Part shown: piece after piece, positions 2,159-54,724 of the stretch | Position numbering within the stretch: the first letter of the stretch is position 1 | How the letters are laid out: every line of letters begins with the position of its first letter | Virus record (IMG/VR): IMGVR_UViG_2816332256_000001 | Location: 1 to 64,000 of that record | Length of the DNA: 64,000 bases | Strand: one strand, 5' to 3' | Source of the DNA: a virus | Taxonomy: Duplodnaviria; Caudoviricetes | Translations under genes and position numbers: made by a program | The notes under the pieces: generated by a model | Told to the model about the DNA's origin: nothing | Databases searched by the model: none | Seen by the model: the letters and a program-made list of their open reading frames with translations, nothing else

Positions 2159-2268
2159 ACGAGCAGGTACAGCACGAACAGCACGATGAACGGATGCCAG
2201 TCACGAGTCCGCGGAAGTTGCATTGCAAACCGCGTGAAACTGCTGCGTTCGATCAATCGGGTAAGCAT
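2128..2268 (-). CDS. Small membrane protein, first gene of the leftward operon
   Basis: GAGG RBS before ATG 2268; hydrophobic WHPFIVLFVLYLLVCAIAPGFGI. Confidence 0.5.
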   Translation of the reverse strand: MLTRLIERSSFTRFAMQLPRTRDWHPFIVLFVLYLLVCAIAPGFGI

Positions 2269-2316
2269 CGGAACCTCGCCTATGGGTTGCGCAGCAGCGG
2301 CGCTGCGGGTAGGCGA

Positions 2317-2365
2317 ATTTAAGCACACTTAATTTGAGTGAGCAACGAAAATTTAGCGTGCTTAA
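2317..2365. promoter_or_regulatory. OL operators / PL of prophage 1
   Basis: ATTTAAGCACACTTAATTT (2317-2335) is the exact reverse complement of 3163-3181; second site TTTAG-CGTG-CTTAA at 2352-2365; minus-strand TTGCTC-N17-TTAAAT. Confidence 0.7.
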
Positions 2366-2392
2366 GTTGACGCGAGATCGAGAACGCGTGCA

Positions 2393-2412
2393 TACTGTTT
2401 ATCCATACAGTA
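2393..2412. promoter_or_regulatory. LexA (SOS) box
   Basis: TACTGT-TTATCCAT-ACAGTA matches the beta/gammaproteobacterial CTGT-N8-ACAG consensus; overlaps TTGACG(2367)-N18-CATACT. Confidence 0.85.
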
Positions 2413-2452
2413 TTGAAAGCTGATTGAAGAACAAGACTGAGGGTGTGCTTCG

Positions 2453-2749
2453 ATGATTCACAACGAGGGGGAGGGCGTAAGCCATCTCAAACCGGGGGAT
2501 TTGGCCGTAATTAGCCGATGTGCAAACGAGGCACATGTCGGTTTGATGGTGCGGGTGATGGGGCCGCATCCGACGCCTGAATTCGATTGGGACGTCGAGT
2601 TGCTGGGGAGGCCGGTGAAGGGATACGCGGCCGGGCACGACCGCGTGGGAGTGTTCAGGTGCGCTGCTGTTTTCGAGTGGAATCTGAGCCGCTTGGCGGC
2701 GTCGGCGCGTTCAGATCGAGAAGTTCGCCTCGAGAGCGTTCATGCATAG
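2453..2749 (+). CDS. SOS-box-preceded small protein (PGDLA family), candidate antirepressor
   Basis: 98 aa, LKPGDLAVI...VGLMVRV...WDV; convergent with cI; homologous to 48519-48842. Confidence 0.7.
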   Translation: MIHNEGEGVSHLKPGDLAVISRCANEAHVGLMVRVMGPHPTPEFDWDVELLGRPVKGYAAGHDRVGVFRCAAVFEWNLSRLAASARSDREVRLESVHA

Positions 2750-3119
2750 CCAGAACCGCCTTCAATGGGGCGTGCAGGGCCGTGACAGCCAACTCCGCCA
2801 TGCCGAGCGCAATCGCTCTCTTGAAATCGGCATAGAAGGCCTGCGCTTCGGGCGGTAATTCGTCCTGGGCATCCTTCATTGGTCCGCGCTTTTCCCAAAG
2901 CCACTCGGGGCGAACGCGTAGAAATCGCGCGACTCCAAATACCGGCGCCGCCTTCAAGTTCTCCACGTTCACTTTGCCGCTCGTCCACTGCGAGACGGCC
3001 GACGGAGAAACCCCTGCCTTGGCGGCGATTTCCTTGTCGTCAATCGACGAACCCAATTCCGCCTCGCGAAGTGCCTTGGCGTACCTGAGCCGTCCTACGA
3101 AGGTGTCTAGGTCGTTCAT
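2655..3119 (-). CDS. CI-like HTH_XRE repressor lacking the S24 peptidase domain
   Basis: 154 aa; HTH (DKEIAAKAGVSPSAVSQWTSG...VRPEWL); divergent from cro; too short for an autocleavage domain. Confidence 0.85.
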   Translation of the reverse strand: MNDLDTFVGRLRYAKALREAELGSSIDDKEIAAKAGVSPSAVSQWTSGKVNVENLKAAPVFGVARFLRVRPEWLWEKRGPMKDAQDELPPEAQAFYADFKRAIALGMAELAVTALHAPLKAVLAMHERSRGELLDLNAPTPPSGSDSTRKQQRT

Positions 3120-3142
3120 TTCAGTAGGCTAAACCTAGAAAA

Positions 3143-3181
3143 GTAAGAGCACTTCACTTTTGAAATTAAGTGTGCTTAAAT
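3143..3181. promoter_or_regulatory. OR operators / PR of prophage 1
   Basis: TTAAG-TGTG-CTTAA (3166-3179) and GTAAG-AGCA-CTTCA (3143-3156); TTCACT-N17-TTAAAT lies 6 nt before the cro ATG. Confidence 0.7.
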
Positions 3182-3187
3182 CTCGCC

Positions 3188-3406
3188 ATGAAAGACGACC
3201 TGCGCGCCGCATACGCGAGCCAAATCATCGATCGACTGGGCGGGACCGGTAAGGCTGCTGATCTCTTTGAGATCGAGCCGGCCGCCGTCTCGCAATGGCG
3301 TCGGAAGGGCATCCCGAAACCGCGGATGCAGTTCTTGCGCATCGCGCGGCCCGACGTTTTTGTTGGTCTCGAAGATGGCACGCGCGGTGGCGTTAGCACT
3401 CGTTGA
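3188..3406 (+). CDS. Cro-like HTH protein
   Basis: IIDRLGGTGKAADLFEIEPAAVSQWRRKGIP, a typical Cro/YdaS HTH; divergent from cI. Confidence 0.85.
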   Translation: MKDDLRAAYASQIIDRLGGTGKAADLFEIEPAAVSQWRRKGIPKPRMQFLRIARPDVFVGLEDGTRGGVSTR

Positions 3407-3666: not shown

Positions 3667-4224
3667 ATGAAATTCGGTGCATTTAAAGGGGGAAATGTGA
3701 CGCTCCAGTACAGCCAGACGGCGTGGATCGATGTGCTTTACACGTCGGTGCTGAATACGCCGGGCAAGGTGGAGGACGCCGCCCGGTTTCTGACCGAGCG
3801 CCGCGGCGTGCGCATCACGGGCGAATCGTTGCGCCTGCGTTTGCGCGAAGTCGACGGCGCTCGCCTGTCGGGGGAAATGTTCGAGCTGCTCGTCGAGTGG
3901 ATGCTCGAGAAAAATCAGGCGCATGCACTCGACGCCGTGCACGCGTTTATCGCGCGATTCGGTTTGGTTGCCTCGACCACTGGCGGCGGTGGCGGAACGG
4001 AGTGCGTGCGCGCGCTTGTTGATTCCGTGTTGACCGTCAGTTCGAGATCCGGTGCGCTGGCCGAGGAAGTACGGCGTGCAGCTGACGACGGCGTGATCGA
4101 AGGGCGCGAGGCCGAAGCGATCGAGAAAGTGGGTCGCGCCGCGCAGCGCCAGATCGAGGAAACGATTCAAATCGCTCGTCGCGCAAATCGCGCGCGGCGT
4201 AAAGCACTGCGGCGCGGCGAGTGA
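3667..4224 (+). CDS. CII-like phage regulatory protein (start may be GTG 3697)
   Basis: Position after cro; C-terminal LAEEVRRAADDGVIEGREAEAI motif seen in the CII family. Confidence 0.65.
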   Translation: MKFGAFKGGNVTLQYSQTAWIDVLYTSVLNTPGKVEDAARFLTERRGVRITGESLRLRLREVDGARLSGEMFELLVEWMLEKNQAHALDAVHAFIARFGLVASTTGGGGGTECVRALVDSVLTVSSRSGALAEEVRRAADDGVIEGREAEAIEKVGRAAQRQIEETIQIARRANRARRKALRRGE

Positions 4225-37092: not shown

Positions 37093-38141
37093 GCCTCCGG
37101 GAATTCATCATGCGTGCGGCCGTCGAGCAATCGGCCGGCGGCGCGCTTGCCTGCGCGGTGAACCATAGACCAGCTATCGCCGCTCGCGGCGCCGCGCGGG
37201 TAGTTGTCGACGCGGTAGCCGCCGGCCGCGATGCGCCCGTCAAGTGAGATCGCGGCCGTTTCGACGCGGCCTGAGCTGAAGTCGCCCGAGCCTGGTGCCC
37301 ATTCGCCGTGCTGTTTGAACAAGAACGGCACGCCGTAAGCCGCGCACTGGTCGCGCAACGAGCGAGCCCAGTCTGGATGCATCGGCCGCGCGCCGCGGCC
37401 GCTTTCGCCGCCGACGATCACCCAGTCGATCTCGGGTGAGCTAAATCCCGTCCCATCCTCCGCGTACTCCGTCGTGGGCCCATGAATCCATGGCGCGTCG
37501 GCAGGGCAGTCGGCACAGGACTGCATTTCCTGCATGCAGCACACACCAGTCGGATCGAACCAGGCTCGAAGATCAACCGGCCCGAGCAACGGCTCCATGG
37601 ACAGGAACCGGCGGCGCGCCGGCGTCATGAGCAGCTTCTCGATGTCGCGATCTGCCTCGGCCTGGTCGACGATCGTCGCGCCGAGCCAGACGTTTGCCCA
37701 CGGCCACGGCGTGTTGACGCGGCGGCCAGCGAGCTCGAGTGCACGGGCGATCATCGGTCCGGCATTGCCGATGCGTTTCGTCAGCAGCAACCAGTCGAGG
37801 TGCGGGGTGTTCCAGATCAGATCGAACAGGTCGGCGCGCCACGCATCCGGAACGGCGTTATCGAACACGTCGGCGAGCGACGCGCAGAACACGCGCTGGC
37901 GCCGGCCGTGTGCGGCGAAGAACTCAGCATGTGCAGCTTCCCACGCGAGCGGCTTCCGCCAGTTCGCGGCCGACGTGCGGCGACGCGGCGCGCCGGTCCC
38001 CCAGTTCACGGCCGTGCCGCCGGCGAAGCGCGCGTTGCGCGACTCGGCGTAGCAGTGGTCGCAGCCCGGGCTGACCTTCGCGCAGCCCTCCCACGGGTTG
38101 AAAGTGTGGTCGCACCACTCGATTTTTGTGTTCTCGCTCAT
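37089..38141 (-). CDS. DUF5131 (Gp37Gp68) radical-SAM-like protein
   Basis: TKIEWCDHTFNPWEGC.KVSPGCDHCYA, LLLTKR, WVIVGGESG, FLFKQHG. Confidence 0.9.
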   Translation of the reverse strand: MSENTKIEWCDHTFNPWEGCAKVSPGCDHCYAESRNARFAGGTAVNWGTGAPRRRTSAANWRKPLAWEAAHAEFFAAHGRRQRVFCASLADVFDNAVPDAWRADLFDLIWNTPHLDWLLLTKRIGNAGPMIARALELAGRRVNTPWPWANVWLGATIVDQAEADRDIEKLLMTPARRRFLSMEPLLGPVDLRAWFDPTGVCCMQEMQSCADCPADAPWIHGPTTEYAEDGTGFSSPEIDWVIVGGESGRGARPMHPDWARSLRDQCAAYGVPFLFKQHGEWAPGSGDFSSGRVETAAISLDGRIAAGGYRVDNYPRGAASGDSWSMVHRAGKRAAGRLLDGRTHDEFPEA

Positions 38142-48375: not shown

Positions 48376-48471
48376 TGTGAGCGACGAAAATTTGTAACAG
48401 GCTGCTCTATGGCGGTTTGTTAAGCGCCTGCTGACAGCAGTTGAAAGTATTCGGGAACTGGCGCTAAACTG

Positions 48472-48487
48472 CTGTACATGCATACAG
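48472..48487. promoter_or_regulatory. LexA (SOS) box
   Basis: CTGT-ACATGCAT-ACAG directly downstream of TTGAAA(48441)-N18-TAAACT. Confidence 0.8.
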
Positions 48488-48518
48488 TATCGTGGCAAAC
48501 AGAAGACGAGGGCGGCCA

Positions 48519-48842
48519 GTGAAAGAAGAATCGAAGACGAGCCTGCGCTGCAGGCCTGGGGACTTGGCAAGGGTGGTGGCAAGCAGGAACCCGGCGCTGG
48601 TCGGCACGATCGTGGCGATTCAGCGGCTGCGGTCGGATGGTCGATGGGATGTGCTGCTCGAGAAACCCGCGTTTGGTTTCACGGAGCGGATGAAGCGACC
48701 GGTCGTGACTCGAGAGTTTTCGTTCTGGGATGCGTCGCTGGAACCGCTCCCTGAAGTCGCGCTGCGACTCAGTCGCCAGGCGGCCTGTCTTCGTCCTGAC
48801 TTGACGAAAGGCGGGGAGCTGACTGGGCTAGTAGCCCACTGA
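48519..48842 (+). CDS. SOS-box-preceded small protein (PGDLA family), candidate antirepressor
   Basis: CRPGDLARVV...VGTIVAI...WDV; GAGG RBS before GTG 48519; convergent with cI. Confidence 0.7.
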   Translation: MKEESKTSLRCRPGDLARVVASRNPALVGTIVAIQRLRSDGRWDVLLEKPAFGFTERMKRPVVTREFSFWDASLEPLPEVALRLSRQAACLRPDLTKGGELTGLVAH

Positions 48843-49113
48843 TGTACGCCTCGACTTTGGCGCGGCCGATCTCGTCGAGCCGATCGTAGCCCGGCGGAAC
48901 CGGTTGGGCTGCGTCGCCGAATTCGAGCCACTCCAGTGTGGTTTGCAGTGCGCGCGCGAGCGCGAACCCATTCGTGGTCGTGGTGCTGCCGCCTCGTTCA
49001 ACCTTGGCTATCGCCGGCTGCGATACGCCGACAAGTTCCGCGATGTGCTTCTGGGACAGGCCCAGTGCCTCGCGACGCTCCTTTGCCCGGCGCCCGAATT
49101 CAGGATTTTCCAT
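48769..49113 (-). CDS. CI-like HTH_XRE repressor lacking the S24 peptidase domain
   Basis: FGRRAKERREALGLSQKHIAELVGVSQPAIAKVERG...LEWL; ~114 aa. Confidence 0.85.
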   Translation of the reverse strand: MENPEFGRRAKERREALGLSQKHIAELVGVSQPAIAKVERGGSTTTTNGFALARALQTTLEWLEFGDAAQPVPPGYDRLDEIGRAKVEAYISGLLAQSAPRLSSSQDEDRPPGD

Positions 49114-49197: not shown

Positions 49198-49509
49198 ATG
49201 AAACCGACCAATTGCTCCGTGCCGGCTCTGCAGGCAGCGATCCAAAAAGCTGGGTCGCAGTCCGCACTTGCCCGCCTGATCGGCAAAAAGCAGCCGCACA
49301 TCCACAAGTGGCTGCATTCCCCCAATGCAATGAGACCCGAGAACTGCGTCCTCGTGGGGAATGCCGTCGGCATCCCGTACAGGGACTTTCGCCCCACCGA
49401 TTGGCATCTGATCTGGCCTGATCCCGCGGTAGCTGCCTCGACGGGGCGCTTGGACGCGTGCATGTCAGAAGGAGGGCAGCGCGACGTGCTTCGCGCAGGC
49501 GTCGACTGA
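49198..49509 (+). CDS. Cro/YdaS-like protein
   Basis: LQAAIQKAGSQSALARLIGKKQPHIHKWL. Confidence 0.85.
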   Translation: MKPTNCSVPALQAAIQKAGSQSALARLIGKKQPHIHKWLHSPNAMRPENCVLVGNAVGIPYRDFRPTDWHLIWPDPAVAASTGRLDACMSEGGQRDVLRAGVD

Positions 49510-52390: not shown

Positions 52391-53361
52391 CGGACCGGCC
52401 GACCCTTCACGTCGTCTCGCTGTCGGGCGGGAAGGACAGCACCGCGACACTGCTCGTCGCGCTCGAGCTGCACGGCCGCGAGAACGTCCGCGCCGCGTTC
52501 GCCGACACCGGCAACGAGCACGAGTCGACGTACGAATACGCGCTTGAATACCTGCCGCGCGCGCTCGGCATTACCGTCGACGTGGTGCGCGCCGACTTCG
52601 CAGACGAGTTCGCGACGAAGCGCGCGAACCTCGCGCGGATCGCGGCCGGCGAGCCGGAATCGGCAGTCTACGGAAAGCGCGAGTTCATGTACGCCTGGAC
52701 GCCCGAGGCGGCCGCTCGTGCGCTAGACCTGCTGCACCCGACCGGAAACCCGTTCCTTGACCTGTGCATGGTTCGAGGCGGTTTCCCATCGCGCAAGCGC
52801 CAGTTCTGCACCGAATACCTGAAGCGGAATCCGTTGACGGAATACGCGCTGCATCAGATCGACGCGGGGTATTTCGTCGAGTCATGGCAGGGCGTTCGCG
52901 CGGACGAGAGTGAGGCGCGCCGGTGGCTCCCGCATTACGAATGGCGCGGGGGGCATTACGCCGTGTTCCGTCCGATTCTGCGCTGGAACGTTGCCGACGT
53001 GTTCGATGCTCACGCGGCTGCTGGCATCACCGCGAACCCGCTTTACCGCGAAGGCATGACGCGCGTCGGGTGCATGCCCTGCATCAACGCGGGGAAGCTC
53101 GAATTGCGCGAGATCGCGCGCCGCTTTCCCGAGCACGTCGAGCGCATCGCCGCGTGGGAGAGCCTCGTTTCGGAGGTGTGTCGACCCTTGAGCCCCGTCT
53201 CATTCTTCCACATGGGTACAACGGGGCATTCGGGCCAAGCCACAACAGTGCATCAGGTCGTCGAGTGGTCGAAAACGACGCGCGGCGGCCGCCAATACGA
53301 CCTACTCGCGGACGCCGAGCCGGCGACCGCATGCGCTTCGGCGTACGGATTGTGCGAATGA
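52387..53361 (+). CDS. PAPS-reductase-family (PP-loop) protein
   Basis: [35 protein letters not shown]. Confidence 0.9.
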
Positions 53362-54467
53362 ATCAACTCCCGAATCCTCTCACCCCAGCGGACTGCAACC
53401 TCCGCGATTTCCCGTTCATGCCGCTCGAGGTGAAGCGTCTGCTGACGTCCGAGACGTGGATCCTCGGCAGCGGTGACGAGCGCGCGGCCGCGATCACGTT
53501 GTGGCTCGAAAGCTGGCATCAGATCCCGGCCGCGAGCCTGCCGGCCGACGACCGCATGCTCGGCCATCTGTCCCAGTCGAAGAACTGGAAGCGTGTGAAG
53601 GAACACGCGCTGCGCGGATGGGTGAAGTGTGCCGACGGCCGTCTCTATCACCCGGTCGTCGCCGAGAAGGTGCTCGAAGCGTGGGTCTCGAAGCTGACCA
53701 GCAGCTTGTCCGGCACCACGGGCAACGCGAAGCGCTGGGGTATCGAGGTCGACACGGTGGCAGTGCGTGCGCAGATCGTCGAGGCCGCGAACCTCCTGAA
53801 AGCGATCGCCCCGCAATCTGAATGGCTGAGAAAAAAGCAGGTCCGGGAGATCGTATCCGATTCGCGTCGCGATCCCGATCCGATCGCCCCCCGATCACCA
53901 ACGCAATCGCCCCCCGATTCGCCCCCCGATCGCAAGAGAGAGGGAGAGGGAGATGTAAACACAGCAAGCGGCGGCGGCACAGCACAGGGAGAGGGGGAAG
54001 AACCGCCGATCGCCGCCGCCGCTTTCGTCGAAATCCTCCGCTCGTCGGGCGTGGGCTTTGCCGCCGATGACGCACGATTGGCGGGCTGGCACGGCCGCGG
54101 CGTGACGGCCGACGACCTGCGCGCGGCGATTGCCACGGGGCGCAAGCGCCGAGAGCGCGAGCGCTCCGAGCAGCCGCTGAACCTCGGCTTGCTCGAGCTG
54201 ATCCTCGGCGATCTGCTCGCCGCGCGCGCCGCGAAGCCAGCGCCCGGGACACGCACCGTCGGTGACTGGTGGCGGTCGTGGACCGGAATCGTCGAGCACG
54301 GCGGCACGCTCGGCGTCGAGCAGGGCCGCGACGAACCTCCGTTCGATTTCAAGCTGCGCGTGTTCGACGCCGCGGGCGACGGCCCGTGGTGGGACGACCA
54401 CAACCGCGCATTTCGCAACACTGCCGGCCCCGTCGCGGCCGGCGCTTTGATGGGGGAAGGGCGATGA
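53358..54467 (+). CDS. DUF1376/YdaU-family replication initiator
   Basis: DCNLRDFPFMPLEV.RL..S..W...LW..SWHQ.PA.SLP.DD...DGRLYHPVVAE. Confidence 0.85.
   Translation: MNQLPNPLTPADCNLRDFPFMPLEVKRLLTSETWILGSGDERAAAITLWLESWHQIPAASLPADDRMLGHLSQSKNWKRVKEHALRGWVKCADGRLYHPVVAEKVLEAWVSKLTSSLSGTTGNAKRWGIEVDTVAVRAQIVEAANLLKAIAPQSEWLRKKQVREIVSDSRRDPDPIAPRSPTQSPPDSPPDRKREGEGDVNTASGGGTAQGEGEEPPIAAAAFVEILRSSGVGFAADDARLAGWHGRGVTADDLRAAIATGRKRRERERSEQPLNLGLLELILGDLLAARAAKPAPGTRTVGDWWRSWTGIVEHGGTLGVEQGRDEPPFDFKLRVFDAAGDGPWWDDHNRAFRNTAGPVAAGALMGEGR
53883..53930 (+). repeat. Iterons (A/T)TCGCCCCCCGAT x3, probable ori of prophage 2
   Basis: Copies at 53883, 53906 and 53918 inside the initiator gene, followed by a purine tract. 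Confidence 0.65.
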
Positions 54468-54724
54468 ACTGCAAACCGGGGGATCTGGCCGTGATCACGC
54501 ATGGTACGGCTCGCGATCGCATCGTCGAGGTGAAGGGGCCTTACGGCGACTACCTGCACCTCGGCTTCTGCTGGTACGTCGAAGCGCCTACGCCGGTCCC
54601 AGCAATGGACGCGAAGACCGGCTTGACCTGTCACATCACGAACGGCTGGTGTCCGGACATGTGGCTGCGGCCGATCAGTGGCGTGCCGGTGATGGATGAC
54701 ATCGAGGACGAGGTGACGGCATGA
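54464..54724 (+). CDS. PGDLA-family small protein (paralog of the SOS-linked genes)
   Basis: MNCKPGDLAVI...IVEV...WYV...LRPI. Confidence 0.7.
   Translation: MNCKPGDLAVITHGTARDRIVEVKGPYGDYLHLGFCWYVEAPTPVPAMDAKTGLTCHITNGWCPDMWLRPISGVPVMDDIEDEVTA

Follow-up and report, generated by a model that had tools for sequence, protein, structure and literature searches.

A LexA-box-controlled small gene convergent on a short CI repressor gene encodes a candidate prophage antirepressor

LexA-controlled antirepressors of other phages

The logic by which LexA controls an antirepressor, and the antirepressor in turn a non-cleavable prophage repressor, is already established in several phages. We analyzed the first 64 kb (hereafter the window) of the 83.8-kb IMG/VR provirus record IMGVR_UViG_2816332256_000001, whose nearest named relatives are phages of Burkholderia and genomes of that genus or of Paraburkholderia, and examined a gene of 98 amino acids (aa) that lies behind a LexA box and converges on the prophage repressor gene cI. 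Judged from sequence comparison, the 98-aa protein is probably an SOS-induced antirepressor of the non-cleavable CI of its own prophage. By analogy, its regulatory logic appears to be that of phage 186 Tum, N15 AntC, the Gifsy antirepressors and SPbeta/phi3T Sar, and what the locus would add is membership and architecture, not principle. Relative to these known systems, the differing elements are an uncharacterized protein family with a modelled SH3-like fold, a convergent overlap with the repressor gene, a C-terminal module shared among repressors, and ungated copies of the small gene in satellites and operons.

In phage 186, the genome record annotates the tum product as a small protein inhibiting DNA binding by the non-cleavable CI. 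Like the window gene, tum is served by a dedicated LexA-repressed promoter (p95) with the LexA box placed over the -10 element and starting at it, and many related loci found in this study have exactly the box of 186, TACTGTATGTTTATACAGTA. The two systems differ in protein and in position. The 186 record names a DinI-type protein whereas the window protein was modelled as an SH3-like barrel, and tum, sited at the right end of the genome, is remote from cI, whereas the window gene converges on cI and overlaps it.

The prophages Gifsy-1, -2 and -3 encode GfoA, GftA and GfhA, small LexA-controlled antirepressors of short, uncleaved repressors (Lemire et al. 2011, PMC3121763). Fels-1 carries FsoA, a homologue outside LexA control that lies in the left (early) operon of the phage and acts in trans on the repressors of other prophages (PMC3121763), and it parallels the box-less paralogues of the window family. 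Unlike the window gene, the Gifsy genes follow a dinI homologue in an operon approximately 1.3 kb downstream of replication genes, and are not convergent on the repressor gene (PMC3121763). The Gifsy antirepressors were likened to the window protein by description, not by sequence. Similarly, the epsilon protein of P4 is a derepressor of the helper prophage of approximately 95 aa, and a homologue of the window protein occupies the same position in P4-like elements of Burkholderia. Epsilon differs in that it is not LexA-controlled, belongs to a satellite and not to the prophage that it derepresses, and has no sequence similarity to the window protein.

SPbeta and phi3T encode Sar, a LexA-controlled small antirepressor of a non-cleavable repressor, located one open reading frame (ORF) from the repressor gene and forming phage-specific cognate pairs; Sar is an intertwined alpha/beta dimer that serves as a DNA mimic for its integrase-fold repressor (bioRxiv 10.1101/2025.11.27.690993). 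The window locus is unlike Sar in that co-variation, described below, points to the C-terminal module of the repressor and not to DNA mimicry at the recognition helix. Myxococcus CarS is an antirepressor of SH3 topology, a regulator of the light response that is neither phage-encoded nor linked to the SOS response (PMC2926617). Both Sar and CarS were compared with the window protein by description only.

We know of no described mechanism for the induction of lambdoid prophages in Burkholderia, including those of B. pseudomallei and B. thailandensis, phi644-2 among them, and full-text literature searches returned no paper on the present module in Burkholderia. The locus provides a concrete candidate for the damage sensor, complete with an operator, a promoter, a partner repressor and a proposed contact module. 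If the antirepressor reading is true, a new family of SH3-like proteins would join the LexA-controlled antirepressors, a fixed sensing cassette would prove combinable with interchangeable DNA-binding domains, and satellites and co-resident prophages might trigger one another.

The small gene, its LexA operator and the CI repressor

The locus comprises the following features.

2367..2396, plus strand: sigma-70-like promoter of the small gene, the sole promoter-like site in a scan of 2200-3300
2393..2412: LexA operator (SOS box) TACTGTTTATCCATACAGTA, over the -10 element and likely transcription start, conserved in related loci
2453..2749, plus strand: 98-aa small gene, candidate SOS-induced antirepressor, modelled with an SH3-like barrel core at approximately residues 12-81 and a disordered tail
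2655..2749: 95 nt, by ORF coordinates, over which the small gene and cI overlap in antisense at their 3' ends
2655..3119, minus strand: cI, 154 aa, with HTH_3, then a helical hairpin module at approximately residues 88-139, then a disordered tail

A preliminary description of this stretch, made from the sequence alone, had proposed a perfect LexA box overlapping a sigma-70-like promoter, and a 98-aa gene running against a short cI. All of these were found as claimed. The promoter consists of TTGACG (2367-2372), an 18-nt spacer and CATACT (2391-2396), and the box therefore covers the -10 element and the likely start of transcription. The 20-mer box pattern, with no more than two mismatches, had 2 matches in the window against 0.20 expected. 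The box type matches the host operator, as far as can be read from a Burkholderia genome with such sites ahead of lexA and recA. In this genome (G001), which bears a homologous module (L004), 14 boxes with at most one mismatch were found in 7.7 Mb; one of them lies approximately 125 bp upstream of recA, and lexA is preceded by two tandem CTGT-N8-ACAG sites. A third box of the provirus record, TACTGTATGGATATACAGTT, lies outside the window at record positions 83066-83085 (L035 1567-1586), approximately 50 nt upstream of an SRAP gene (PF02586; SOS response-associated peptidase) at the end of the record. By sequence, the third box and the SRAP gene make up an internal control for the operator type, and the SRAP gene itself may be host flank or phage cargo.

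CI had been described as only 154 aa long and devoid of an S24 peptidase domain, and our searches agreed. Its sole Pfam match above the family cut-off was HTH_3 (residues 15-73; helix-turn-helix, HTH), and it also matched repressor families of the PHROG database. The AlphaFold2 model (mean predicted local distance difference test score, pLDDT, 76) was all-helical, with the HTH followed by two long helices (90-104 and 108-133) packed as a hairpin and by a disordered tail. With neither room nor signature for an S24 domain in sequence or model, CI appears incapable of S24-type autocleavage, and without a C-terminal Peptidase_S24 domain it does not belong with the cleavable repressors of the lambda CI/LexA type. 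A master repressor free of an autocleavage domain and a predicted LexA operator placed to block the promoter of the small gene are features of the LexA-controlled antirepressor class, and both were present at this locus. Peptidase_S24 (PF00717) had zero matches in the whole 83.8-kb record, and the ANT domain of the P22 Ant type (PF03374) was absent from the small protein in the Pfam search and from the whole record. This leaves the small gene as the one visible connection of the SOS response to the lysogenic switch.

The small gene is preceded by a ribosome-binding site, GAGGG, at 2439-2443, nine bases before the ATG. Ten close homologues had the same length of exactly 98 aa, and a hidden Markov model search of 1.84 billion representative proteins returned 47 clusters (50% identity, E <= 1e-3), all of 53-124 aa. 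Across eight loci, the ratio of nonsynonymous to synonymous substitution rates (dN/dS) was 0.04-0.36 over codons 12-67, which do not overlap cI, and was distorted in the cI-overlapping part, as coding in two frames predicts. The small gene is under purifying selection at the protein level and not merely as a transcript. The family carries an N-terminal signature (L)RC(K/R)PGDLA(I)V, followed by IG.LV.V, DW.VE..G.P and a C-terminal D(W)NL(T/R)P(I/L), and its length and motifs were kept down to 25-30% identity. We also considered that the 98-aa ORF was a chance frame in GC-rich DNA, which was ruled out by conservation, selection and the 47 clusters of relatives.

The AlphaFold2 model of the 98-aa protein (pLDDT 69.8; predicted template modelling score, pTM, 0.60) had seven strands, with residues 1-9 and 84-98 disordered. 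When the model was compared to 48,161 chains with VIA-align, the top matches were mostly SH3-like barrels (PsaE, PWWP, Tudor, CAP-Gly, and the KOW domains of Spt5/NusG), at Z 6.0-7.4 and, for the best of them, a root-mean-square deviation of 2-3 A over 55-62 residues, which is below the safe-match level of the tool itself. An SH3/KOW-like fold had been guessed from the sequence pattern, and the model and most of its structural matches point the same way. Foldseek found no match in the PDB at E <= 0.001, a profile search of PDB sequences returned nothing meaningful, the structural matches in BFVD were uncharacterized proteins only, and the neighbours in the ESM Atlas were all unnamed.

Searches of Pfam, NCBIfam and PADLOC gave zero matches for any of the three paralogues in the window. 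The 98-aa protein matched phrog_2529, a family of unknown function, weakly and over residues 10-40 only (E 0.008), and 18 of 33 family members matched it with a best E of 1.3e-7; the two probably form one superfamily. By hhalign, sequence similarity was lacking both to 186 Tum (family alignment A3; probability 0.1%, E 0.53) and to P4 epsilon (probability 0.15%, E 0.4). Together with the negative domain searches (ANT, Pfam, NCBIfam and PADLOC), this upheld the initial impression that the protein resembles none of the known antirepressors. A protein without a known family, in a slot beside cI that often holds accessory genes, could also be a damage-induced moron or a defence or exclusion gene, comparable to rexAB of lambda and unrelated to the switch. 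We regard this as very improbable. The protein had no match in PADLOC, the gene would be silent in the lysogen if LexA binds, unlike exclusion genes of the lysogen-expressed kind, and the universal pairing and co-variation with non-cleavable repressors (see below) would be left unexplained.

Related loci and the repressor C-terminal module

In all, 74 places with a homologue of the small gene were compared. Three of them are in Burkholderia phage records, three in bacterial genomes and two are the modules of the window; the other 66 are IMG/VR loci, among which L022 and L073 denote a single place on one contig. A sequence was scored as a box if it agreed with TACTGT...ACAGTA at 10 or more of the 12 flanking positions. 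We found that in 66 of the 74 loci a box was kept 15-57 nt upstream of the chosen start codon of the homologue, together with a short convergent repressor gene; the Burkholderia phages phi644-2, vB_RY5 and vB_SR1 were among them. With the same arrangement in dozens of related phages, the small gene is most likely their DNA-damage sensor. In phi644-2 (L001 2968-3273; CP000625.2 ~37391-37696), the small ORF and the LexA box are both present and the ORF is unannotated; the gene product gp49, encoded convergently on the small ORF, is likely the repressor.

The repressors of the related loci fell into at least 15 types at 60% identity. Peptidase_S24 was not found in ten further repressor types, which had HTH_3-type domains or no Pfam match. 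The N-terminal domains were often unrelated, and a C-terminal module of approximately 45-60 residues was common to most types, including the CI of the window. This module follows the pattern ..A..LI.AI..AD..G....F..L...L.., then an EPFDVEDP or LLDLNAP tail (alignment A6), and had no match in Pfam. Based on its sequence, it is a candidate domain for both oligomerization and antirepressor docking. Among 105 pairs of type representatives, the identity of the 75-residue core of the small protein followed the identity of the last 60 residues of the repressor (Spearman 0.83) and not that of the DNA-binding part (Spearman -0.12). Therefore, what evolves as a unit is the box with the small gene and the C-terminus of the repressor, and DNA-binding domains are swapped around it. 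Such co-variation is as expected of a cognate pair of antirepressor and target, and is supportive, not decisive.

Where the automatic procedure picked the repressor correctly, in 60 box-bearing loci, the 3' end of its gene ran 38-110 nt into the small gene. A true end of cI ahead of the overlap was considered and ruled out, as the overlap recurs in these 60 loci and the conserved LLDLNAP motif lies inside it. The 95-nt overlap in the window and its counterparts elsewhere suggest a second route of induction, in which convergent transcription is the main inducer and the protein is secondary: after LexA cleavage, antisense transcription from the SOS promoter through the 3' end of cI and past it would cut CI synthesis by polymerase collision or by formation of double-stranded RNA. 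The scan of 2200-3300 detected nothing resembling a terminator between the two genes, which would favour such read-through, and convergent interference is an established element of the switch of phage 186. We nevertheless consider it quite unlikely that this is the principal route. The strong purifying selection acts on the non-overlapping protein core, with length and motifs retained among distant homologues. Moreover, reduced synthesis alone would act slowly against a stable pool of existing repressor, and the box-less homologues in satellites and operons cannot work in this way.

Operators of the immunity region, proposed mechanism and box-less homologues

The locus belongs to a lambdoid immunity region, with leftward early genes below 2330 and the following further features.

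2319..2332: candidate CI operator OL1 (TTAAGCACACTTAA), in the spacer and -10 element of an inferred leftward early promoter
2352..2365: candidate CI operator OL2 (TTTAGCGTGCTTAA), ending 1 nt before the -35 element of the SOS-controlled promoter
3120-3133, 3143-3156 and 3166-3179: tripartite right operator (OR1-OR3) between cI and cro, with 23-bp spacing and 0 to 2 mismatches to TTAAGNNNNCTTAA
3188..3406, plus strand: cro-like gene (P22_Cro, E 4e-7; phrog_8008, E 6e-14)
3667..4224, plus strand: cII-like activator gene (Phage_CP76, E 5e-9; phrog_101, E 1e-17)

The operator palindrome, with no more than one mismatch, had 3 matches in the 64 kb against 0.15 expected, at 2319, 2352 and 3166, all of them in the immunity region. 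The left operator has two sites spaced 33 bp apart. From reading the sequence, the leftward early promoter PL would lie at OL1, the position of which is conserved in related loci. The 1-nt distance from OL2 to the -35 element was the same in all six R0-type loci checked, with differing central bases of the site. The centre of OL2 lies at approximately -44 relative to the SOS promoter, and OR2 of lambda abuts PRM at a placement close to this one. The OR sites at 3120 and 3143 are weaker, and the same OR layout was found in five related loci.

These elements can be joined in a mechanism. In the lysogen, host LexA bound in vivo to the box over the -10 element and start would keep the promoter of the small gene silent, and CI would keep PL and the rightward promoter PR shut through OL1-OL2 and OR1-OR3. 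Upon DNA damage, RecA would be activated, LexA would cleave itself, the promoter would fire, and the small, putatively SH3-like protein would build up. The protein is predicted to bind CI non-covalently and to take it off its operators, allowing the early operons to start. The likely contact is the C-terminal helical hairpin of CI, which is common to many otherwise unrelated Burkholderia phage repressors, and binding there would disrupt CI oligomerization or cooperative DNA binding. Expression of cI is probably further impaired by antisense or collision effects of the convergent transcription, which enters the gene at its 3' end.

Eight homologue loci had no CTGT-N8-ACAG anywhere in the fetched DNA. 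In L074-L077 the homologues lie inside early operons. L070-L072 are P4-like elements of Burkholderia, and the gene order was read in L070 (1-3815), in which an AlpA-family gene and small ORFs are followed by the homologue (101 aa), ORFs of 168 and 108 aa, and a PriCT-2/Toprim/DUF927 primase. The order in P4 is ORF88 (excisionase/regulator), cI, epsilon (95 aa, helper derepression), ORF151, ORF106 and the alpha primase; thus, the homologue stands where P4 has epsilon. Its position, and only that, independently hints at prophage derepression as the activity of the family. A separate arrangement was seen at L068 1960-2770 (IMGVR_UViG_2808606384_000002), where three diverged copies of the small gene stand in tandem, with overlapping ends, in one box-less operon; this triplet could be a multi-specificity battery.

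The presence of box-less family members in early operons beside replication-like and RusA-like genes would also fit an SOS-induced protein aimed at the host and not at CI, such as a division inhibitor, a DinI-like modulator of RecA or LexA, or another damage helper. SH3-like barrels are generic binding modules, and the structural matches of the window protein include ZapC as well as KOW domains. Prophage induction would then have to use an unseen route, and neither an S24 nor an ANT domain in the record offers one. Furthermore, the small gene is tied to the repressor gene in the 66 box-bearing loci and tracks the repressor C-terminal module, and the epsilon-slot position in satellites fits helper derepression. 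A host target is accordingly judged unlikely.

Compared to these alternatives, the reading as an antirepressor of a new family, although unproven, has good comparative support, and it was strengthened by co-variation with the C-terminal module of the repressor and by the epsilon-slot homologues. Several points weigh against it. The co-variation is confounded by physical linkage, because abutting and overlapping sequences that are tightly linked would give the same result. The fold assignment is middling, given the pLDDT and Z values of the model. The domain tests on repressors of the window covered two, this CI and the repressor of prophage 2. Finally, the eight box-less family members stand in other contexts (early or nin-like operons, the tandem triplet, satellites), and therefore the ancestral activity of the family could differ from antirepression; these copies would also be compatible with the fold serving in binding more generally.

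A broader scheme that joins all of these observations is offered tentatively, as a possibility that we hold to be clearly less likely than antirepression of CI itself. The small protein would dock on the portable C-terminal hairpin of at least 15 otherwise unrelated Burkholderia phage repressors and would not recognize the DNA-binding domain of each. In that case, a transferable "SOS-inducibility cassette" would be made up of the box, the small gene and the C-terminus of the repressor, and new DNA-binding domains could be grafted onto it by recombination with damage sensing kept. Ungated copies in satellites, in the triplet and in early operons might derepress other elements resident in the cell, giving a genus-wide network of cross-induction. 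In the same scheme, CI at OL2, abutting the -35 element, may prime the SOS promoter to fire only in lysogens.

The window contains a second module and a third family member, both in prophage 2.

48470..48489: LexA box of the prophage 2 module (TGCTGTACATGCATACAGTA), with 1 mismatch
48519..48842, plus strand: small-gene paralogue in prophage 2, encoding 107 aa with 29% identity to the 98-aa protein
48769..49113, minus strand: short HTH_3 repressor gene of prophage 2, 114 aa, convergent on the small gene with a 74-nt overlap
54464..54724, plus strand: third family member, 86 aa, without a LexA box (profile match, E 5e-10)

The third member lies in the early-right operon of prophage 2, upstream of a RusA-like ORF, and its ATG overlaps the stop codon of the long upstream ORF 52923-54467 (ATGA). 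The RusA-like and replication-gene labels in this neighbourhood are ones that we assigned by reading the translations and not by family searches. This gene may be an ungated antirepressor serving commitment or cross-induction. The prophage 2 module itself is followed by a YdaS/Cro-like gene at 49198-49509.

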